64,000 nucleotides of DNA, taken from contig JACRMK010000056.1 of NCBI GenBank assembly GCA_016235055.1, forward strand, positions 23,359 to 87,358, read 5' to 3'. The notes beneath the pieces were generated by a model, which was given only the letters and a program-made list of their open reading frames with translations, had not been told where the DNA came from and did no database searches. Positions 22,190 to 33,635 of this stretch are shown one piece after another. The position numbers and the translations under genes are program-made. Numbering within the stretch: the stretch's first letter is position 1; each line of letters begins with the position of its first letter. This DNA is from Chloroflexota bacterium. GTDB lineage: Bacteria; Chloroflexota; Anaerolineae; JACRMK01.

Positions 22190-23173
22190 GTGATCATCTC
22201 CCGCACCCCCCTGCGCGTCAGTTTCGTCGGCGGCGGCAGCGATCTGGCGGCGTACTACCAGTGTGCGCCCGGCGCCGTCGTCAGCACCGCGATCGACAAA
22301 TACATCTACATCACGGTCAACCGCAAGTTTGACAGCCGCATCCGCGCGAGTTATTCCGTCACGGAAATCGTCGATAGCGTGGGCATGGTGAAGCACGAGT
22401 TGATCCGCGAGGCGCTGAAACTGGTCGGGGTTGATGGCGGCATCGAGATTACATCAATCTCGGACATTCCGTCTGAAGGCACGGGACTCGGTTCCTCCAG
22501 CACGTACACGGTCGGACTGCTGACCGCGTTGTACGGTTACATCGGGCGGCACGTGGGAGCCGAGCGGCTGGCGCGCGAGGCGTGCGAAATCGAAATCGAG
22601 CGGTGCGGACGTCCGATTGGCAAGCAGGATCAGTACATAGCTGCCTATGGCGGCCTGCAGTATCTGCGATTCAACCCGGATGAGAGCGTCTTCGTTAATC
22701 CGATCATTTGCCCGCCCGCTCTGCGGCAGACGCTGCAATCCCGACTGATGCTCATGTACATGGGCACGACCCGCGCCTCCAGCGCGATTCTGGCCGAGCA
22801 GCGCTCGAACACGGAGCACGACGCCGGTAACCGGCGCGTGCTGGGGCACATGGTCGCACAGGCCGACGCACTGCGCGCCGCGCTCAATCAGCAGGACCTC
22901 GATGCGTTTGGCGGCATCCTGCACGACGGCTGGCTGGCCAAGAAGCAGTTGGCGTCCGGGATCAGCAACGGGCAGATTGATGAGTGGTATGACCGCGCGC
23001 GCGCCGCCGGGGCCGTCGGCGGCAAGGTACTTGGCGCGGGCGGCGGCGGGTTCCTGCTGCTGTATGCGCCACCGGAACGGCAGGCCGCCATCGAGCGCGC
23101 TCTGCCGGAACTGCGGCGCATCGGTTTCGGCTTTGAGCCGCAAGGCTCCAAGATTATCTACGTCGAGGATTGA
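22190..23173 (+). CDS. GHMP kinase, D-glycero-D-manno-heptose 7-phosphate kinase (HddA) type
   Basis: N-terminus MIISRTPLRVSFVGGGSDL and the GHMP ATP motif PSEGTGLGSSS. Confidence 0.8.
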   Translation: MIISRTPLRVSFVGGGSDLAAYYQCAPGAVVSTAIDKYIYITVNRKFDSRIRASYSVTEIVDSVGMVKHELIREALKLVGVDGGIEITSISDIPSEGTGLGSSSTYTVGLLTALYGYIGRHVGAERLAREACEIEIERCGRPIGKQDQYIAAYGGLQYLRFNPDESVFVNPIICPPALRQTLQSRLMLMYMGTTRASSAILAEQRSNTEHDAGNRRVLGHMVAQADALRAALNQQDLDAFGGILHDGWLAKKQLASGISNGQIDEWYDRARAAGAVGGKVLGAGGGGFLLLYAPPERQAAIERALPELRRIGFGFEPQGSKIIYVED

Positions 23174-23176
23174 AGC

Positions 23177-23926
23177 ATGGCGACCGCCGCGGGCCGACCG
23201 CCCTCCGCCCGCCTCTACCTGGATCGCCAGGCAGCCAGCCTGCCGCGCTATGTATGGGAGCAAGCGCTGATGGCGCTGGCCGGATGGGTGCCAACAATTG
23301 CCGGAATCGCTTTGCGCGGGCTGCTCTACCGCTTCATGCTGCGCATGGACGGCATGGCCGCCATCGAAGCGGGCGTGCGGCTGCGCTTTGCCGGCAACAT
23401 CCGGCTGGGCCGGCGCGTGTACCTCGACGAGGGTGTGTATATTCATGCCTGCCCGGCCGGCGTCACGATCGGCGACGACACGCTGGTCATGCACGGCTCG
23501 GTGCTGCACGTATATAACTTCCGGGGCATACCGCAGTCGGGCATTCGTGTCGGACGCCACAGCCTCATCGGCGAGTATAATGTTATTCGCGGGCAGGGCG
23601 GCGTGACGATCGGCGACCGGGTCTATACGTCGCCGCACTGCCAGCTCATCGCCGTCAACCATGTCTTCGATGACCCGGCACGCCCGTTCGTCGAGCAGGG
23701 CATCACGGCGCAGGGAATCGTCATTGAGGACGATGTGTGGATCGGCAGTGGCGCGCTGATATTGGATGGCGTGCGCGTCGGACGCGGCGCGGTCGTCGCC
23801 GCCGGCGCAGTCGTCACCAAAGACGTGCCGGCGCATACCGTGGTCGGCGGCGTGCCGGCGCGGGTCATCCGGGAGATTGATGGGACCAGCACGGTGCCCG
23901 ACGGGGTAGCCGTCTATTCGCTCTAA
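23177..23926 (+). CDS. hexapeptide-repeat (LbH) acyl/acetyltransferase
   Basis: Repeated [LIV]GxxxxI hexapeptides ([34 protein letters not shown]). Confidence 0.8.
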
Positions 23927-23927
23927 C

Positions 23928-30831: not shown

Positions 30832-31010
30832 GCGCTTGGTTTCGCAGCCTGGCCGCCAACACCGGTGTGGCCGGCGAAGTCTTCGTGTATCTGTGGCGCC
30901 GCAAGAAGTGGTGGCTCATCCCGATGGTCGTGGTGCTGATGGTCTTCGGACTACTGCTGGTCTTTGCGTCGGCGTCCGGCGTTGGCCCGTTCATCTACAC
31001 GCTGTTCTAG
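30828..31010 (+). CDS. small membrane protein (60 aa) overlapping the carbamoyltransferase stop (SxtK-like position)
   Basis: ATGA start/stop overlap, RRKKWWLIPMVVVLMVFGLLLVFAS TM helix. Confidence 0.45.
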   Translation: MSAWFRSLAANTGVAGEVFVYLWRRKKWWLIPMVVVLMVFGLLLVFASASGVGPFIYTLF

Positions 31011-31039
31011 GCACAATCGCCCATCCCGCAGACATACTA

Positions 31040-32166
31040 TGGCATCGGAACTCGTATTAGTCACCGGCGGCGCCGGTTTCATCGGCTCGCACCTGGTTGA
31101 CGCGCTCATCGCGCGCGGCCACCGCGTGCGCGTGCTGGATAACCTCGAACCGCAGGTCCACGGCGAAGGCGGCGTCCGGCCGGACTACCTCAACCCGCAG
31201 GTCGAGTACCTGTGGGGCGACGTGCGCGACCGCGACACGCTTCGGCATGCGCTCGACGGAGTCGAGGTCGTCTTTCACGAAGCGGCGATGGTCGGCGTCG
31301 GGCAGTCGATGTACCAGATTGCGCGCTACGTGTCGGTCAACACCCTCGGCACGGCGACGCTGTTGGATCTGCTGGCGGCCGAGCGCGGCCGCGTGCGCAA
31401 ATTGATCGTCGCGTCGTCCATGTCGATCTACGGCGAAGGCGGTTACACCTGCTCCACGCATGGTCCGATCACGCCCCCACTGCGCGCGGCCGAGCAGTTG
31501 GCTCGACGCGACTGGGAGATGCGGTGTCCGCACTGCGGCGCTCAGGCGAGTCCCACACCGACCGGCGAGGACAAAACGCTGAGCGCGAATAGCATCTACG
31601 CGATTGCCAAAAAGGACCAGGAAGAGATGTGCCTGTGCGTGGGCCGCGCCTACGGCATACCGGCCGTCGCGCTGCGGTACTTCAACACGTACGGCACACG
31701 CCAGGCCCTATCGAACCCGTACACCGGCGTGGCCGCCATCTTCTCGTCGCGACTGCTCAACGGCCGCGCGCCACAGATTTTCGAAGACGGTCTCCAGACG
31801 CGCGATTTTGTGCATGTGAGCGACATCGTCCAGGCCAACCTGCTGGCGATGGAGCACGACGCGGCGGATTACCAATCATTCAACGTGGGTACCGGTCGGT
31901 CGATCACCATTCGGGCCGTGGCCGAGACCGTGGCGGCCGCGCTCGGCGTCGAGATCGCGCCGGAGATCGTCGGCAAGTATCGCGAAGGAGATATCCGGCA
32001 CTGTGTGGCCGACATTTCGCGCGCGCGCGAACTGCTCGGCTATGCGCCGCGCGTGACGCTGGAGCACGGCATGCGCGAACTGGCCGGCTGGGTGCGCGGT
32101 CAGACGGCGGTCGACGGGTCCGCGCTCGCCGCGCGCGAACTGGAACGGCGAGGGTTGGCGCGATGA
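31040..32166 (+). CDS. NAD-dependent epimerase/dehydratase (NDP-sugar epimerase family)
   Basis: VTGGAGFIGSHL Rossmann motif and the YAIAK catalytic Y-x3-K. Confidence 0.9.
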
Positions 32167-33635
32167 CACGCTCTCGTTGGCCGGCGCTCGTGCTGGCACT
32201 GTTCGCGATAGCGCTCGCCGCCGGAACGGTGGACGCGCAGGATCCCGCCGGTGTGCGCTGGAGCCAGCCGCTGGTCATCTCAGGCAACGTGCCGCATTCC
32301 GGCCGGCCGGCCATTGTGGCCGACGCTTTCGGGAGGGTGCATATCTTCTGGCAGGCCGCGTACACGCCGTTCCCTCAGAACCCAGAGGTGGGCGGCAGCA
32401 TCATCTACTACTCGCAGTATGACGGCGCGCGCTGGACCGATCCGGTGGATCTGTTTGTATCGCCCGGCAGTTATTCGCTGGCTTCCAATGTTGTGGCCGT
32501 GGCGGATGATGCAGGCTACGTGGACGCTGCGTGGGTGGGCGGCGGCCTGCTGTTTTTCACCCGCGCGCCCATAGACCTGGCAACCAGCGCGCGCGCGTGG
32601 TCGCCGTTCATCCGCATCGACGATAACGTGCAGACACCGTACCTGGCGACCGGCAGGGATGGCACGCTGCACCTCTTTTACTGGAACACGGGCACAACCC
32701 CCGGTATCTATTACACACGCTCAGTCGATCGCGGCCTGCACTGGACATCGCCCGAGCCGATCTGGCAGCGGCCGGTGCGCGGGCAGGTTCCCGGCACAGC
32801 CGACGCTATCGTGGTCGTGCAGGACCCGGCCAGCGGCGTGCTGCACGCGGTCTGGGTTGACATCTTCGAGCCAACCCTGTATTACGCGCAGTCGACAGAT
32901 CAAGGACTGTCATGGTCGCGCCCGGTGCAACTCGATGAGCGCGATCCTAATTCCAACCTGTTCGGACCGCTGTATCCCAGCATCGGCGTCGACGCGCGCG
33001 GCAGTATAGTCCTACTCTGGACGGCGAGCCACGACAAGGTTTCGTGCGCCCGTTACGGGCGTACTTCGACCAACGGCGGGCAGACCTGGGGCGCACGGCG
33101 GCGCGTGCTGGCACCGATTGAAGGCTGCTTCTTCCAAACGCCATTTGTTGCAGACGGCTCCGGCGTCCTCCAGATGGCGACCGTGGGCCGCGACAAGGGC
33201 ATCGTCGCACTATACCGCAGCACCTGGGGCAACACCGATTGGATGGCGCCCCAGACATTCCTCGGCGTGTCCATCAAAGATGGCGACGACTGGCAGCAAC
33301 GCGGCCCCGATGATCTGAAGTTGGCGATCGGCCTCGGCAACAAGATGCATGCGGCATGGTACACGAATGACGGTCGGGTCTGGTACGCAACCGGCGAGAG
33401 TACAGCGCGCTCGATCGCGGCTCGGACCGTGCCGACACCCTTGCCAACGGCGACGCGGCCTTCCGCACTCGCCACAAGCGTCGCACCGGCACCCACACGC
33501 GGCCCGCAATTTCCGGCCGACGCCGTGCCGGCCGAATCGCGGCCGGGCGAATTGCCGCTCTATTTCGGCGTCGTGCCCGTGCTCGCGCTGCTCCTGCTCG
33601 TTGTGGTGAGCCGCGTCATGGCGCGCGGTCGCTGA
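32163..33635 (+). CDS. secreted BNR/Asp-box repeat protein (sialidase-like beta-propeller) with C-terminal TM anchor
   Basis: Signal peptide MTRSRWPALVLALFAIALAAGTVDA. Asp-boxes SVDRGLHW, STDQGLSW and STNGGQTW. C-terminal LPLYFGVVPVLALLLLVVVSRVMARGR. ATGA overlap with the epimerase. Confidence 0.7.
   Translation: MTRSRWPALVLALFAIALAAGTVDAQDPAGVRWSQPLVISGNVPHSGRPAIVADAFGRVHIFWQAAYTPFPQNPEVGGSIIYYSQYDGARWTDPVDLFVSPGSYSLASNVVAVADDAGYVDAAWVGGGLLFFTRAPIDLATSARAWSPFIRIDDNVQTPYLATGRDGTLHLFYWNTGTTPGIYYTRSVDRGLHWTSPEPIWQRPVRGQVPGTADAIVVVQDPASGVLHAVWVDIFEPTLYYAQSTDQGLSWSRPVQLDERDPNSNLFGPLYPSIGVDARGSIVLLWTASHDKVSCARYGRTSTNGGQTWGARRRVLAPIEGCFFQTPFVADGSGVLQMATVGRDKGIVALYRSTWGNTDWMAPQTFLGVSIKDGDDWQQRGPDDLKLAIGLGNKMHAAWYTNDGRVWYATGESTARSIAARTVPTPLPTATRPSALATSVAPAPTRGPQFPADAVPAESRPGELPLYFGVVPVLALLLLVVVSRVMARGR

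Follow-up and report, generated by a model that had tools for sequence, protein, structure and literature searches.

A probable cell-envelope glycosylation operon of Chloroflexota built from a conserved acyltransferase, glycosyltransferase and radical SAM core and exchangeable modules

The stretch of DNA analysed here, called the window below, is 64,000 nucleotides (64 kb) of a contig from a Chloroflexota metagenome-assembled genome, and our subject is a block of ten plus-strand genes at positions 22190-33635 of it, which follow each other at distances of 40 nt or less or overlap. With gene starts refined using NCBI and Logan gene calls, the block begins with a GHMP kinase assigned to the HddA/WcbL subgroup (22190-23173, 327 aa; Pfam GHMP_kinases_N/C). 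Three genes follow that we refer to as the core: a left-handed β-helix (LbH) acyl(acetyl)transferase (23177-23926, 249 aa; Hexapep, 62 bits), a family 2 glycosyltransferase (GT2) of predicted polyprenyl-phosphate type (23928-25151, 407 aa; Glycos_transf_2, 113 bits), and a radical S-adenosylmethionine (SAM) enzyme (25189-26841, 550 aa; Radical_SAM, 89 bits). A fourth, semi-conserved core gene encodes a protein of the Wzy_C/O-antigen-ligase family with tetratricopeptide repeats (the Wzy_C/TPR protein; 26867-28759, 630 aa; Wzy_C, TPR_19 and TPR_8). Next comes an accessory cassette of three genes: a small partner protein without a Pfam or NCBIfam family (28800-29027, 75 aa), the O-carbamoyltransferase of the NodU/CmcH/TobZ family whose upstream partner it is (29008-30831, 607 aa; Carbam_trans_N 283 bits, Carbam_trans_C 212 bits), and a DUF5989 protein (30828-31010, 60 aa; 69.9 bits) with a transmembrane helix at residues 30-48. 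The block closes with two further accessories, an extended short-chain dehydrogenase/reductase (SDR) epimerase (31039-32166, 375 aa; Epimerase, 169 bits) and a secreted BNR propeller protein (32163-33635, 490 aa; BNR_2, 50.9 bits). We regard it as fairly probable that the block is a co-transcribed cell-envelope glycosylation operon, composed of a conserved core and exchangeable modules, in which a lipid-linked sugar is tailored by the radical SAM enzyme; the product is most likely a modified, probably heptose-based cell-surface sugar.

An initial annotation of the same DNA, made from its sequence, had described a co-directional surface-glycan operon of eleven genes. A surface-glycan role fits the whole gene set, the junctions and open reading frames (ORFs) lie where that annotation placed them, and Pfam finds every domain it named. 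By NCBI locus tags, the interval holds ten genes (HZB53_14390-14435, the exact proteins being on record for a Chloroflexota metagenome-assembled genome), and the eleventh is a 141-aa hypothetical ORF just upstream, at 21730-22155, with which the tags run from HZB53_14385 to HZB53_14435. In gene order, the intergenic distances are 3, 1, 37, 25, 40, -20, -4, 28 and -4 nt, and no convincing intrinsic terminator was found inside the block. Nearly all genes between about 2.4 and 43.6 kb of the window lie on the plus strand, so that co-directionality, on which the operon had partly been founded, is weak evidence here; the tight spacing, in contrast, is real evidence for an operon. The flanks have a housekeeping character, with OTCase, VIT1 and Usp genes upstream and genes for an aldehyde:ferredoxin oxidoreductase (AFOR), L19, RNase HII and MiaA downstream. 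Gaps that never exceed 40 nt, gene overlaps, the lack of an internal terminator and the housekeeping flanks make it likely, as had been proposed, that the ten genes are co-transcribed.

Homologues of the window's proteins were placed by tblastn in 80 genome loci around close homologues of the radical SAM enzyme (61-82% identical), which come nearly all from Chloroflexota of Anaerolineae-, Caldilineae- and Ardenticatenales-type; the counts given here rest on these tblastn placements and not on ORF clusters, and the denominators differ from gene to gene (52-69 of the 80 loci). Radical SAM homologues were matched in 398 GTDB species genomes, again nearly all of them Chloroflexota. The GT2 gene lies within 2 kb upstream of the radical SAM gene in 68 of 69 loci and the LbH acyltransferase gene within 3 kb upstream in 60 of 64 (55-77% identity), while a Wzy_C/TPR gene is found within 1.5 kb downstream in 36 of 62 (27-39% identity). 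The remaining genes are far less regular companions: the GHMP kinase within 10 kb upstream in 14/54 loci, the BNR protein and the epimerase within 10 kb downstream in 13/52 and 7/52, respectively, and the carbamoyltransferase within 8 kb downstream in 1/52. The flanking Usp and AFOR genes were never found by tblastn in the 80 loci.

The block is thus a mosaic of a conserved LbH-GT2-radical SAM core, with or without the Wzy_C/TPR gene, and of lineage-variable add-ons that are exchanged between loci, namely the kinase, the epimerase, the BNR protein and the carbamoyl genes. The synteny check speaks against a conserved eleven-gene unit, as nothing beyond this core is kept across loci, and with the kinase in 14/54 and the carbamoyltransferase in 1/52 loci, the apparent uniqueness of the 11.5-kb combination, which had been held to be special to this locus, is a matter of modular shuffling. 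The core trio, in contrast to its surroundings, is 50-82% identical across orders, which suggests a basic, lineage-typical surface component and not a strain-variable antigen. No description of this trio was found in the literature searched, on Chloroflexota envelope glycans and on radical SAM enzymes; we consider it, and not the full 11.5-kb combination, the element worth following up.

In the related loci, the core is surrounded by genes of glycan loci: WbaP-type initiating transferases, Wzz/tyrosine-kinase co-polymerases, Wzm/Wzt ABC exporters and DegT aminotransferases, together with GT-C-like membrane proteins and NusG-like antiterminator paralogues, most of these labels being read from representative sequences of the neighbour clusters without confirmation by family searches. 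Genes for ArnE/F-like small membrane proteins occur in 21 related loci (61 bits to ArnF against a cut-off of 99 bits), and GT-C-like genes in five, their identity likewise read from the sequences without family-search confirmation. As a separate observation, a second module recurs downstream of the core in three loci (L001, L013 and L063) and comprises an LbH protein, a DegT aminotransferase, a Gfo/Idh/MocA oxidoreductase, a second GT2 of ~344 aa, a UDP-GlcNAc 2-epimerase, an FAD oxidoreductase and a small membrane protein resembling ArnE/F; from this content, a diamino or acetamido sugar linked to a lipid seems to be what the module makes. A NusG-like paralogue stands upstream of the core in L003, L021, L063 and six other loci, which suggests antitermination of the RfaH/UpxY type dedicated to the operon; the block of the window has no such gene nearby.

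The radical SAM enzyme carries the motif C280-SAG-C284-TY-C287 (CxxxCxxC), invariant in 38 homologues, and has the layout of a class-B enzyme, with an N-terminal Rossmann/B12-like domain, the CxxxCxxC barrel and C-terminal helices. Its match to the Pfam B12-binding domain (PF02310) scores 20.1 bits, under the cut-off of 32.1, and relatives at 41-47% identity have a scored PF02310 domain. The best curated NCBIfam model is HpnJ (TIGR03471; 191 bits against a cut-off of 577.6), followed by ApyD (137), BchE (135), PhpK (113) and AprD4 (106, cut-off 500); the methyltransferase models Sden_1168 (102), MCR-Gln methylase (99), HpnR (43), KedN5 (30) and Trp-2-C-MT (30 bits) come lower. The best sequence match in the PDB is AprD4 (E 1e-25, 23% identity), and an AlphaFold (AF2) model of the enzyme (pLDDT 81, pTM 0.83) has as its closest fold, by a clear margin, AprD4 bound to its aminoglycoside substrate (TM-score 0.70/0.84, E 3e-26); the next matches are the cobalamin-dependent enzymes TsrM, MgmA, CysS, OxsB and TokK. 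In apramycin biosynthesis, AprD4 acts as a radical SAM 1,2-diol dehydratase and deoxygenates an aminoglycoside sugar; it does not methylate, and its B12-like N-terminal domain contains no cobalamin.

These results bear directly on the model put forward in the initial annotation, in which a dedicated eleven-gene operon would build a glycan containing heptose, acetyl and O-carbamoyl groups and possibly C-methyl groups, with the radical SAM enzyme as a cobalamin-dependent sugar C-methyltransferase of the GenK/Fom3 type. Much of what that model draws on is present: the genes are tightly packed, an HddA-type kinase and LbH and TobZ-type enzymes are among them, the radical SAM enzyme has the class-B layout and cobalamin enzymes next in fold after AprD4, its relatives at 41-47% identity have the scored B12-binding domain, and the gene order from the LbH gene to the BNR gene largely recurs in one metagenome locus (L097). 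Set against this are a nearest fold that belongs to a non-methylating enzyme, a B12 score below threshold, and methyltransferase profiles that all stay under the 191 bits of HpnJ, with PhpK the highest at 113; the comparison with sugar C-methyltransferases, in which the HpnJ profile and the AprD4 fold come out ahead, was made with the PhpK, KedN5 and Trp-2-C-MT models and not with GenK or Fom3 themselves. As the interval also holds ten genes and their combination is not kept in relatives, we consider this model unlikely, and methylation not the chemistry that is best supported.

Homologues of the enzyme are numerous (at least 5767 at E<=1e-10 in one search, none of them functionally named), and a search of 1.84 billion cluster representatives returned 26,681 matching ones; around the window protein they form a tight family, beyond which lies a large cloud of ~470-aa proteins at 33-40% identity. 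Of these more distant proteins, ten representatives at 31-50% identity were scored: HpnJ is the top model for nine, the tenth has no match, and none reaches a cut-off; over the window enzyme and these distant relatives the HpnJ scores range from 191 to 310 bits against 577. Identifications as HpnJ, BchE, a P- or C-methyltransferase or a ladderane-type lipid biosynthesis protein (TIGR04072) were tried and rejected, all scores being below the respective cut-offs; for HpnJ, there are in addition no hopanoid genes in the window. Among distant relatives, one at 47% identity lies in the order Hexapep-GT2-radical SAM-...-Wzm-Wzt, two at 41% in the orders GT2-LPG_synthase_TM-radical SAM and radical SAM-methyltransferase-LPG_synthase_TM...DegT...GT2, others at 33% follow PMT_2 or adjoin GT2/GT4 genes, and one is near YfhO. 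A further locus (L130, 2258-9351) reads Hexapep-GT2-radical SAM-radical SAM-SIS_2-GT2, the second of the tandem paralogues being 39% identical to the window protein. These neighbourhoods, too, point to lipid-linked sugar systems. We infer that the enzyme, which belongs to an uncharacterised family of which no member has been studied, tailors a sugar in a polyprenyl-phosphate glycosylation pathway, and that an AprD4-like dehydration or deoxygenation, or a rearrangement as in HpnJ and Cds, is more likely than methylation.

The glycosyltransferase of the core gives this pathway its logic. Among NCBIfam models, it is matched best by AglJ, Dol-P hexose transferase, ArnC, PpgS and PgfS, none of which reaches its cut-off, and its residues 4-315 align to ArnC (9bhc/8vxh/9hwj; ArnC residues 10-316, E ~5e-22) and further to GtrB (5ekp, 28-317) and to Pyrococcus DPMS (5mlz, 25-232). 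It contains a D92-A-D94 motif and four C-terminal transmembrane-like helices at residues 236-367, and so combines the DXD-bearing GT-A domain, the C-terminal membrane helices and the full-length alignment, membrane region included, that mark the ArnC/GtrB/DPMS class. On these alignments we assign it as a predicted polyprenyl-phosphate sugar synthase; it had been listed simply as a GT2, and the new assignment changes the logic of the pathway from that of a polymer-building GT, in that a single sugar would be loaded on the lipid carrier and later be transferred outside the cytoplasmic membrane. The LbH enzyme, which carries a hydrophobic N-terminal segment, has the WcaF family, WbbJ and the maltose/galactoside O-acetyltransferases as its best NCBIfam models, all below their cut-offs.

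A lipid-linked sugar and a radical SAM enzyme also occur together in membrane-lipid synthesis, and the trio could by that token belong to a head-group pathway like that of the hopanoid enzymes HpnI/HpnK/HpnJ or of archaeal calditol, the GT2 placing a sugar on a membrane lipid instead of a polyprenyl-phosphate carrier and the radical SAM enzyme contracting its ring to a carbocyclic, cyclitol-like head group, which would give a glycolipid specific to Chloroflexota. HpnJ and Cds are proposed to contract lipid-linked sugars, in the case of HpnJ a lipid-linked glucosamine (PMC13459092). HpnJ is the best curated model for the window enzyme and its distant relatives alike, the set of a GT2, an acetyl-handling enzyme and a radical SAM enzyme mirrors HpnI/HpnK/HpnJ, and the 55-82% identity of the trio across orders would suit a basic membrane component better than a variable antigen. 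The HpnJ scores, however, stay far below the cut-off, and the matches of the GT2 are to ArnC, DPMS and GtrB, with no HpnI or HpnB model among them. An LbH enzyme adds an acyl group where HpnK removes one, there are neither hopanoid nor other lipid-synthesis genes in the window, and the neighbourhoods of the core are glycan loci with WbaP, Wzz, Wzm/Wzt and GT-C genes. We therefore hold a head-group pathway to be improbable, and return to the tailoring of a polyprenyl-linked sugar for a surface glycan.

In the window, a candidate for the last step of such a pathway directly follows the radical SAM gene. The Wzy_C domain of the Wzy_C/TPR protein (residues 221-374) scores 64.9 bits against a cut-off of 31.7, about 11 transmembrane segments are predicted, and by its Pfam domain the protein belongs with the O-antigen ligases and O-oligosaccharyltransferases (the WaaL, PglL and WsaB family). 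No sequence match to solved WaaL or ligase structures was obtained, the TPR part being the one portion that matches PDB entries. As an observation apart from the block, an ORF 6 kb downstream of it (39959-42610, plus strand) encodes a protein of 883 aa that combines ~12 transmembrane segments with a soluble C-terminal part of ~340 aa. Pfam gives no match to it and NCBIfam a weak one to the putative glycosyltransferases LA_3751/LA_3752; its architecture is GT-C-like, and it could be an extracytoplasmic transferase that uses a lipid-linked sugar.

Which sugar is loaded may be indicated by the kinase. Its best NCBIfam model is HddA (NF049969; 154.6 bits, E 4e-45), below the equivalog cut-off of 600 bits, and its full-length matches in the PDB are 3k85 (8e-49), 4usm (1e-43), 4usk (3e-42) and 4n3o (5e-35), far ahead of fucokinase (4e-15) and galactokinase (1e-7); 4n3o is the C. 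jejuni enzyme among these heptose kinases, and 4usk/4usm are what we take to be Burkholderia WcbL. The HddA-type identity proposed for it is in this way upheld, and by these matches the kinase falls into the HddA/WcbL subgroup of D-glycero-D-manno-heptose-7-phosphate kinases. In eight related loci (L013-L015, L021, L023, L032, L041 and L063), its orthologues adjoin GmhA-, GmhB- or NTP-transferase-like genes. The gene strings include kinase-GmhA-GmhB-...-LbH-GT2-radical SAM (L013-L015, L023, L032), NusG-kinase-GmhB-LbH-GT2-radical SAM (L063), NTP-transferase-kinase-...-GmhB-LbH-GT2-radical SAM (L041) and GmhA-GmhB-LbH-GT2-radical SAM (L075), the GmhB-type phosphatase scoring 164 bits against 178 and GmhA 115 against 209 in these neighbours. 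A SIS_2 gene lies directly 3' of the radical SAM gene in L049 and in two distant loci (L125 and L130). In 19/54 loci, one or more genes of the heptose pathway (GmhA-, GmhB-, kinase- or NTP-transferase-like) are found within 10 kb of the core.

In the window, complementary GDP-heptose genes of the kind that the initial annotation had pointed to do exist, but they are 12-26 kb away among unrelated genes, score below threshold or look more like GDP-mannose or GlcN enzymes, and are not accompanied by a GmhB. The first is a GmhA-like SIS isomerase on the minus strand (59528-60154; SIS_2; gmhA model 120.5 against 209 bits), 26 kb from the block; it shares 41% identity with the GmhA-like neighbour of the core in L049 and may possibly supply heptose-7-phosphate. 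The second, also on the minus strand (45091-47598), is a fusion of NTP-transferase, LbH and phosphohexomutase parts (NTP_transferase, PGM_PMM_I-III) with 279 bits to mannose-1-P guanylyltransferase, 274 to archaeal GlmM and 134 against 300 to HddC; these scores would fit GDP-mannose or GlcN metabolism better, and a role as heptose-1-P guanylyltransferase is a mere possibility. Heptose is thus supported by the context in relatives, where it is not universal, and the support is thin in this window itself. The GmhA-like gene is part of a minus-strand mini-locus (59528-62437) that also encodes a GT4 (60950-62437) and a Wzm-like ABC-2 permease (60151-60981), with no Wzt ATPase seen beside it.

The carbamoyltransferase has the Kae1-like Carbam_trans_N and the YrdC-like Carbam_trans_C domains and aligns to TobZ over its length (TobZ residues 4-574 to query residues 5-603, E 1e-81) and to NovN, GdmN and 7xb6 (1e-82 to 3e-84), placing it in the NodU/CmcH/TobZ family as had been proposed; the NodU equivalog score is 141 against 1000 bits. 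In a metagenome scan that gave 41 loci, 40 of them at 61-77% identity to the window protein, a homologue of the 75-aa protein is encoded immediately upstream of the carbamoyltransferase in 40, and, where the sequence extends far enough, a DUF5989 gene either directly precedes the 75-aa gene or directly follows that of the carbamoyltransferase. In the window, the 75-aa gene overlaps the start of the carbamoyltransferase gene by 20 nt. Of the two tiny membrane proteins said to bracket the enzyme, the DUF5989 protein has its single transmembrane helix, while the 75-aa partner has one moderately hydrophobic segment; 13 word-indexed homologues of the latter were found, all unnamed, and no mention of DUF5989 was found in the literature searched. 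The three genes are an independent, near-invariant cassette that is docked onto the core in a minority of lineages: among eleven metagenome loci with long flanks, only two (L093 and L097) have the LbH-GT2-radical SAM genes beside the triad, L097 repeating much of the order seen in the window including a BNR-like protein (LbH-GT2-radical SAM-Wzy-small-CarbT...BNR), and in two genome loci (L022 and L060) the triad lies near the core in the order DUF5989-small-carbamoyltransferase.

The epimerase scores 152 bits to GalE against a cut-off of 262, its best PDB matches are 4zrm, 6wjb, 6dnt, WbpP and WbgU, and it looks by these like a UDP-glucose/UDP-GlcNAc 4-epimerase and not like a heptose enzyme. 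For the BNR protein, the description as a secreted Asp-box propeller with a C-terminal membrane anchor proves accurate, since a signal peptide, three Asp-boxes and a C-terminal transmembrane helix are all seen, along with a Pro/Thr/Ala-rich linker at residues ~420-465. The protein is fast-evolving, with only four word-indexed homologues, and its AF2 model (pLDDT 73), made from a shallow alignment, has ~28 strands, corresponding to ~7 blades. At TM-scores of ~0.5, the model resembles carbohydrate-active propellers in a generic way, best the seven-bladed Photorhabdus PLL/PHL lectins and polysaccharide lyases (PL25/PL42), and also sialidases; there is no PDB sequence match at E<=1 and no NCBIfam match. 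The NCBI name exo-alpha-sialidase (GH33) was considered and rejected, as there is no sequence match to support it, the model has ~7 blades against the six of a sialidase propeller, and sialidase folds rank lower (TM-score 0.41-0.46). We think that the protein could bind or process a glycan or could itself be a substrate of glycosylation. BNR-like proteins lie near the carbamoyl triad in 4 of the 11 long loci. Similar proteins of 500-940 aa recur next to Wzy_C/TPR genes and next to the triad. Among loci of this kind, L046, L075, L090, L092 and L097 encode proteins of ~900 aa with a signal peptide, many BNR/Asp-box-like repeats and a C-terminal membrane anchor, which look like larger versions of the propeller of the window.

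An independent cassette and an epimerase that looks specific for another sugar raise the question whether the ten genes serve one product at all. They might have been collected on a shared transcript and yet make separate products, with the core making one conserved component and the carbamoyl triad, the epimerase and the BNR protein acting on a different polysaccharide or metabolite. The triad occurs in contexts without the core in 8 of the 11 long loci, the epimerase is UDP-hexose-like and not heptose-like, and the accessory genes vary from locus to locus, all of which would fit such an arrangement. However, in the window the triad, the epimerase and the BNR gene are tied to the core by overlaps (-20, -4 and -4 nt) and gaps of 28-40 nt; the triad adjoins the core in at least four independent loci (L022, L060, L093 and L097) and in different orders, and BNR-like proteins recur beside both the core and the triad. 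We consider separate products doubtful on these grounds, and keep to a single envelope-glycosylation operon assembled from the core and the modules.

From the gene content, the spacing, the family-level identities, the conservation and the neighbourhoods observed, we infer the following scheme of substrate, step order, chemistry and acceptor. A nucleotide-activated sugar would be made first, and the GT2 would transfer it to polyprenyl phosphate at the inner face of the membrane. The LbH enzyme would O-acetylate the sugar, either on the lipid or while it is still bound to the nucleotide, and the radical SAM enzyme would then remodel it by a radical diol-dehydration/deoxygenation or a ring rearrangement rather than by methylation. 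A further step in this lineage would be the O-carbamoylation of the sugar by the TobZ-type enzyme together with its two small membrane partners. After flipping, the Wzy_C/TPR protein or an unlinked GT-C enzyme would transfer it to an extracytoplasmic acceptor; this could be a polysaccharide of the cell surface or a protein located there, for instance the co-encoded propeller, which is anchored and has a Pro/Thr-rich linker.

Several points weigh against this scheme. Equivalog cut-offs are missed for HddA, GmhA, ArnC, HpnJ, AprD4, GalE and NodU, so that the assignments are made at the level of families, and the members are known from sequence alone, the source being an uncultured metagenome-assembled genome. 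In 35 of 54 loci, the core has no heptose gene in its surroundings of 10 kb, GmhB is not detectable by tblastn in the 64-kb window and there is no clear HddC in it, which means that the sugar of the core may not, or not always, be a heptose. The Wzy_C/TPR gene is absent downstream of the radical SAM gene in ~40% of loci. The proteins of the O-antigen-ligase family that have so far been characterised use glycans linked to polyprenyl diphosphate and not sugars linked to the monophosphate, so that it is uncertain whether the GT2 connects to the Wzy_C/TPR protein. The block itself lacks a flippase candidate, and ArnE/F-like genes were not found by tblastn in the window; the triad, finally, usually lies away from the core and may serve a different substrate. 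Beyond the operon as such, we put forward tentatively, as a possibility we would not yet count on, that the LbH-GT2-radical SAM(-Wzy_C/TPR) core represents an undescribed kind of lipid-linked sugar tailoring typical of Anaerolineae-type Chloroflexota, in which the AprD4/HpnJ-like radical SAM enzyme deoxygenates a polyprenyl-phosphate-linked heptose or other sugar, or rearranges its ring, ahead of its transfer to the cell surface.

The surroundings of the block add some detail. Its GC content equals that of the flanks, and a horizontally acquired island, which was considered, is unsupported for that reason. The sole strong promoter candidate upstream is a sigma-70-like match on the plus strand at 21704-21731 (CTGCCA-16-TATAAT, 10/12), a candidate by its match to the consensus only. 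The annotated start codon of the 141-aa ORF on the same strand (21730-22155; MBI5878835) overlaps with this site; the ORF ends 34 nt before the kinase gene and encodes a coiled-coil N-terminus and a C-terminal transmembrane helix at residues 109-127; the ORF has no Pfam or NCBIfam match and no homologue among the 80 radical SAM loci. Its membership of the operon is uncertain, and it may be a mis-called gene in what is instead an operon leader of ~450 nt. Neither a riboswitch nor another structured RNA was detected within the block or close to it by Rfam and tRNA scans, a tRNA-Gly(CCC) at 48484-48555 on the minus strand being the sole structured RNA of the 64-kb window (Rfam, ARAGORN). An antisense ORF of 498 aa (22454-23950, minus strand) that spans the kinase and acyltransferase genes is a high-GC shadow and not a gene. 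The ornithine/aspartate carbamoyltransferase gene 2 kb upstream of the operon (19147-20106, plus strand) also encodes a user of carbamoyl phosphate, and its proximity to an operon with an O-carbamoyltransferase is probably a coincidence. Directly downstream of the block, the gene for a tungsten-type aldehyde:ferredoxin oxidoreductase (33870-35717, plus strand) suggests that the source organism is anaerobic.

Sediments, activated sludge and anaerobic digesters harbour Anaerolineae and their relatives in large numbers, and almost nothing is known of the envelope and sheath chemistry of these bacteria. If the radical SAM enzyme does tailor a lipid-linked sugar, this would be a new type of reaction for polyprenyl-phosphate glycosylation, would give a function to a family of thousands, and might provide a chemical biomarker for these bacteria. 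Should the tentative reading of the core hold true, the enzyme would be a fourth component of three-component systems, and an unusual deoxy- or carbocyclic heptose would be expected in the envelope or sheath of these abundant, filamentous organisms. The carbamoyl triad is of interest in its own right as a clean, near-invariant cassette with small subunits that have no known role.

Among known systems, the block resembles the three-component systems ArnC/ArnE-F/ArnT, GtrB/GtrA/GtrV, CsbB/GtcA/YfhO, Ppm1/PMT and PgfS/PgfM: the GT2 aligns full-length to ArnC, GtrB and DPMS, and related loci have genes for an ArnE/F-like flippase, LPG_synthase_TM, PMT_2 and YfhO. In the Arn pathway, ArnD tailors the lipid-linked sugar before transfer, which parallels the route proposed here. 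The differences are that the GT2 has a radical SAM enzyme and an LbH acyltransferase as its constant companions, that the membrane partner is a Wzy_C/TPR protein and not a recognised GT-C, and that the block contains no flippase gene; we know of no described three-component system that includes a radical SAM enzyme. GDP-heptose pathways are familiar from S-layer glycans, whose loci also end with a Wzy_C-type O-oligosaccharyltransferase. They are known as well from the capsules of C. jejuni (PMC10680097). As in such systems, the best solved relatives of the kinase are heptose-7-phosphate kinases, and GmhA-, GmhB- and NTP-transferase-like genes flank the core in relatives; unlike there, the kinase is the one gene of the pathway inside the operon and misses the HddA cut-off (154.6 against 600 bits), and a heptose would have to be bound to polyprenyl monophosphate and then be modified by a radical SAM enzyme, which is not known from those systems.

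AprD4 is the best match of the radical SAM enzyme in sequence and in fold, acts on a sugar ring, and shares the B12-like domain, the barrel and the C-terminal domain; the identity is 23%, however, the model score is 106 against 500 bits, AprD4 comes from an aminoglycoside cluster and not from an envelope glycan locus, and, whereas AprD4 works with the reductase AprD3, no conserved AprD3-like partner is present here. With HpnI/HpnK/HpnJ, and with Cds, the core has in common a lipid-linked sugar made by a GT2 and then rearranged by a radical SAM enzyme (PMC13459092). It is set apart by the HpnJ score (191 against 577 bits), by a GT2 that is not HpnI-like, by an acyltransferase in place of a deacetylase, and by the absence of hopanoid genes. 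To our knowledge, Chloroflexota are not noted for hopanoids. For the carbamoyl triad, SxtI of saxitoxin biosynthesis with the short ORFs SxtJ and SxtK is a published parallel (PMC2679770, PMC2885083), although SxtJ has ~134 aa against 75 aa here and belongs to a toxin cluster and not to a glycan locus. The carbamoyltransferase itself also has relatives in TobZ, NovN and GdmN, TobZ being matched over the full length. By these analogies, we suggest that the block would work like a three-component polyprenyl-phosphate system, probably fed with GDP-heptose, to which a TobZ-type carbamoylation has been added.

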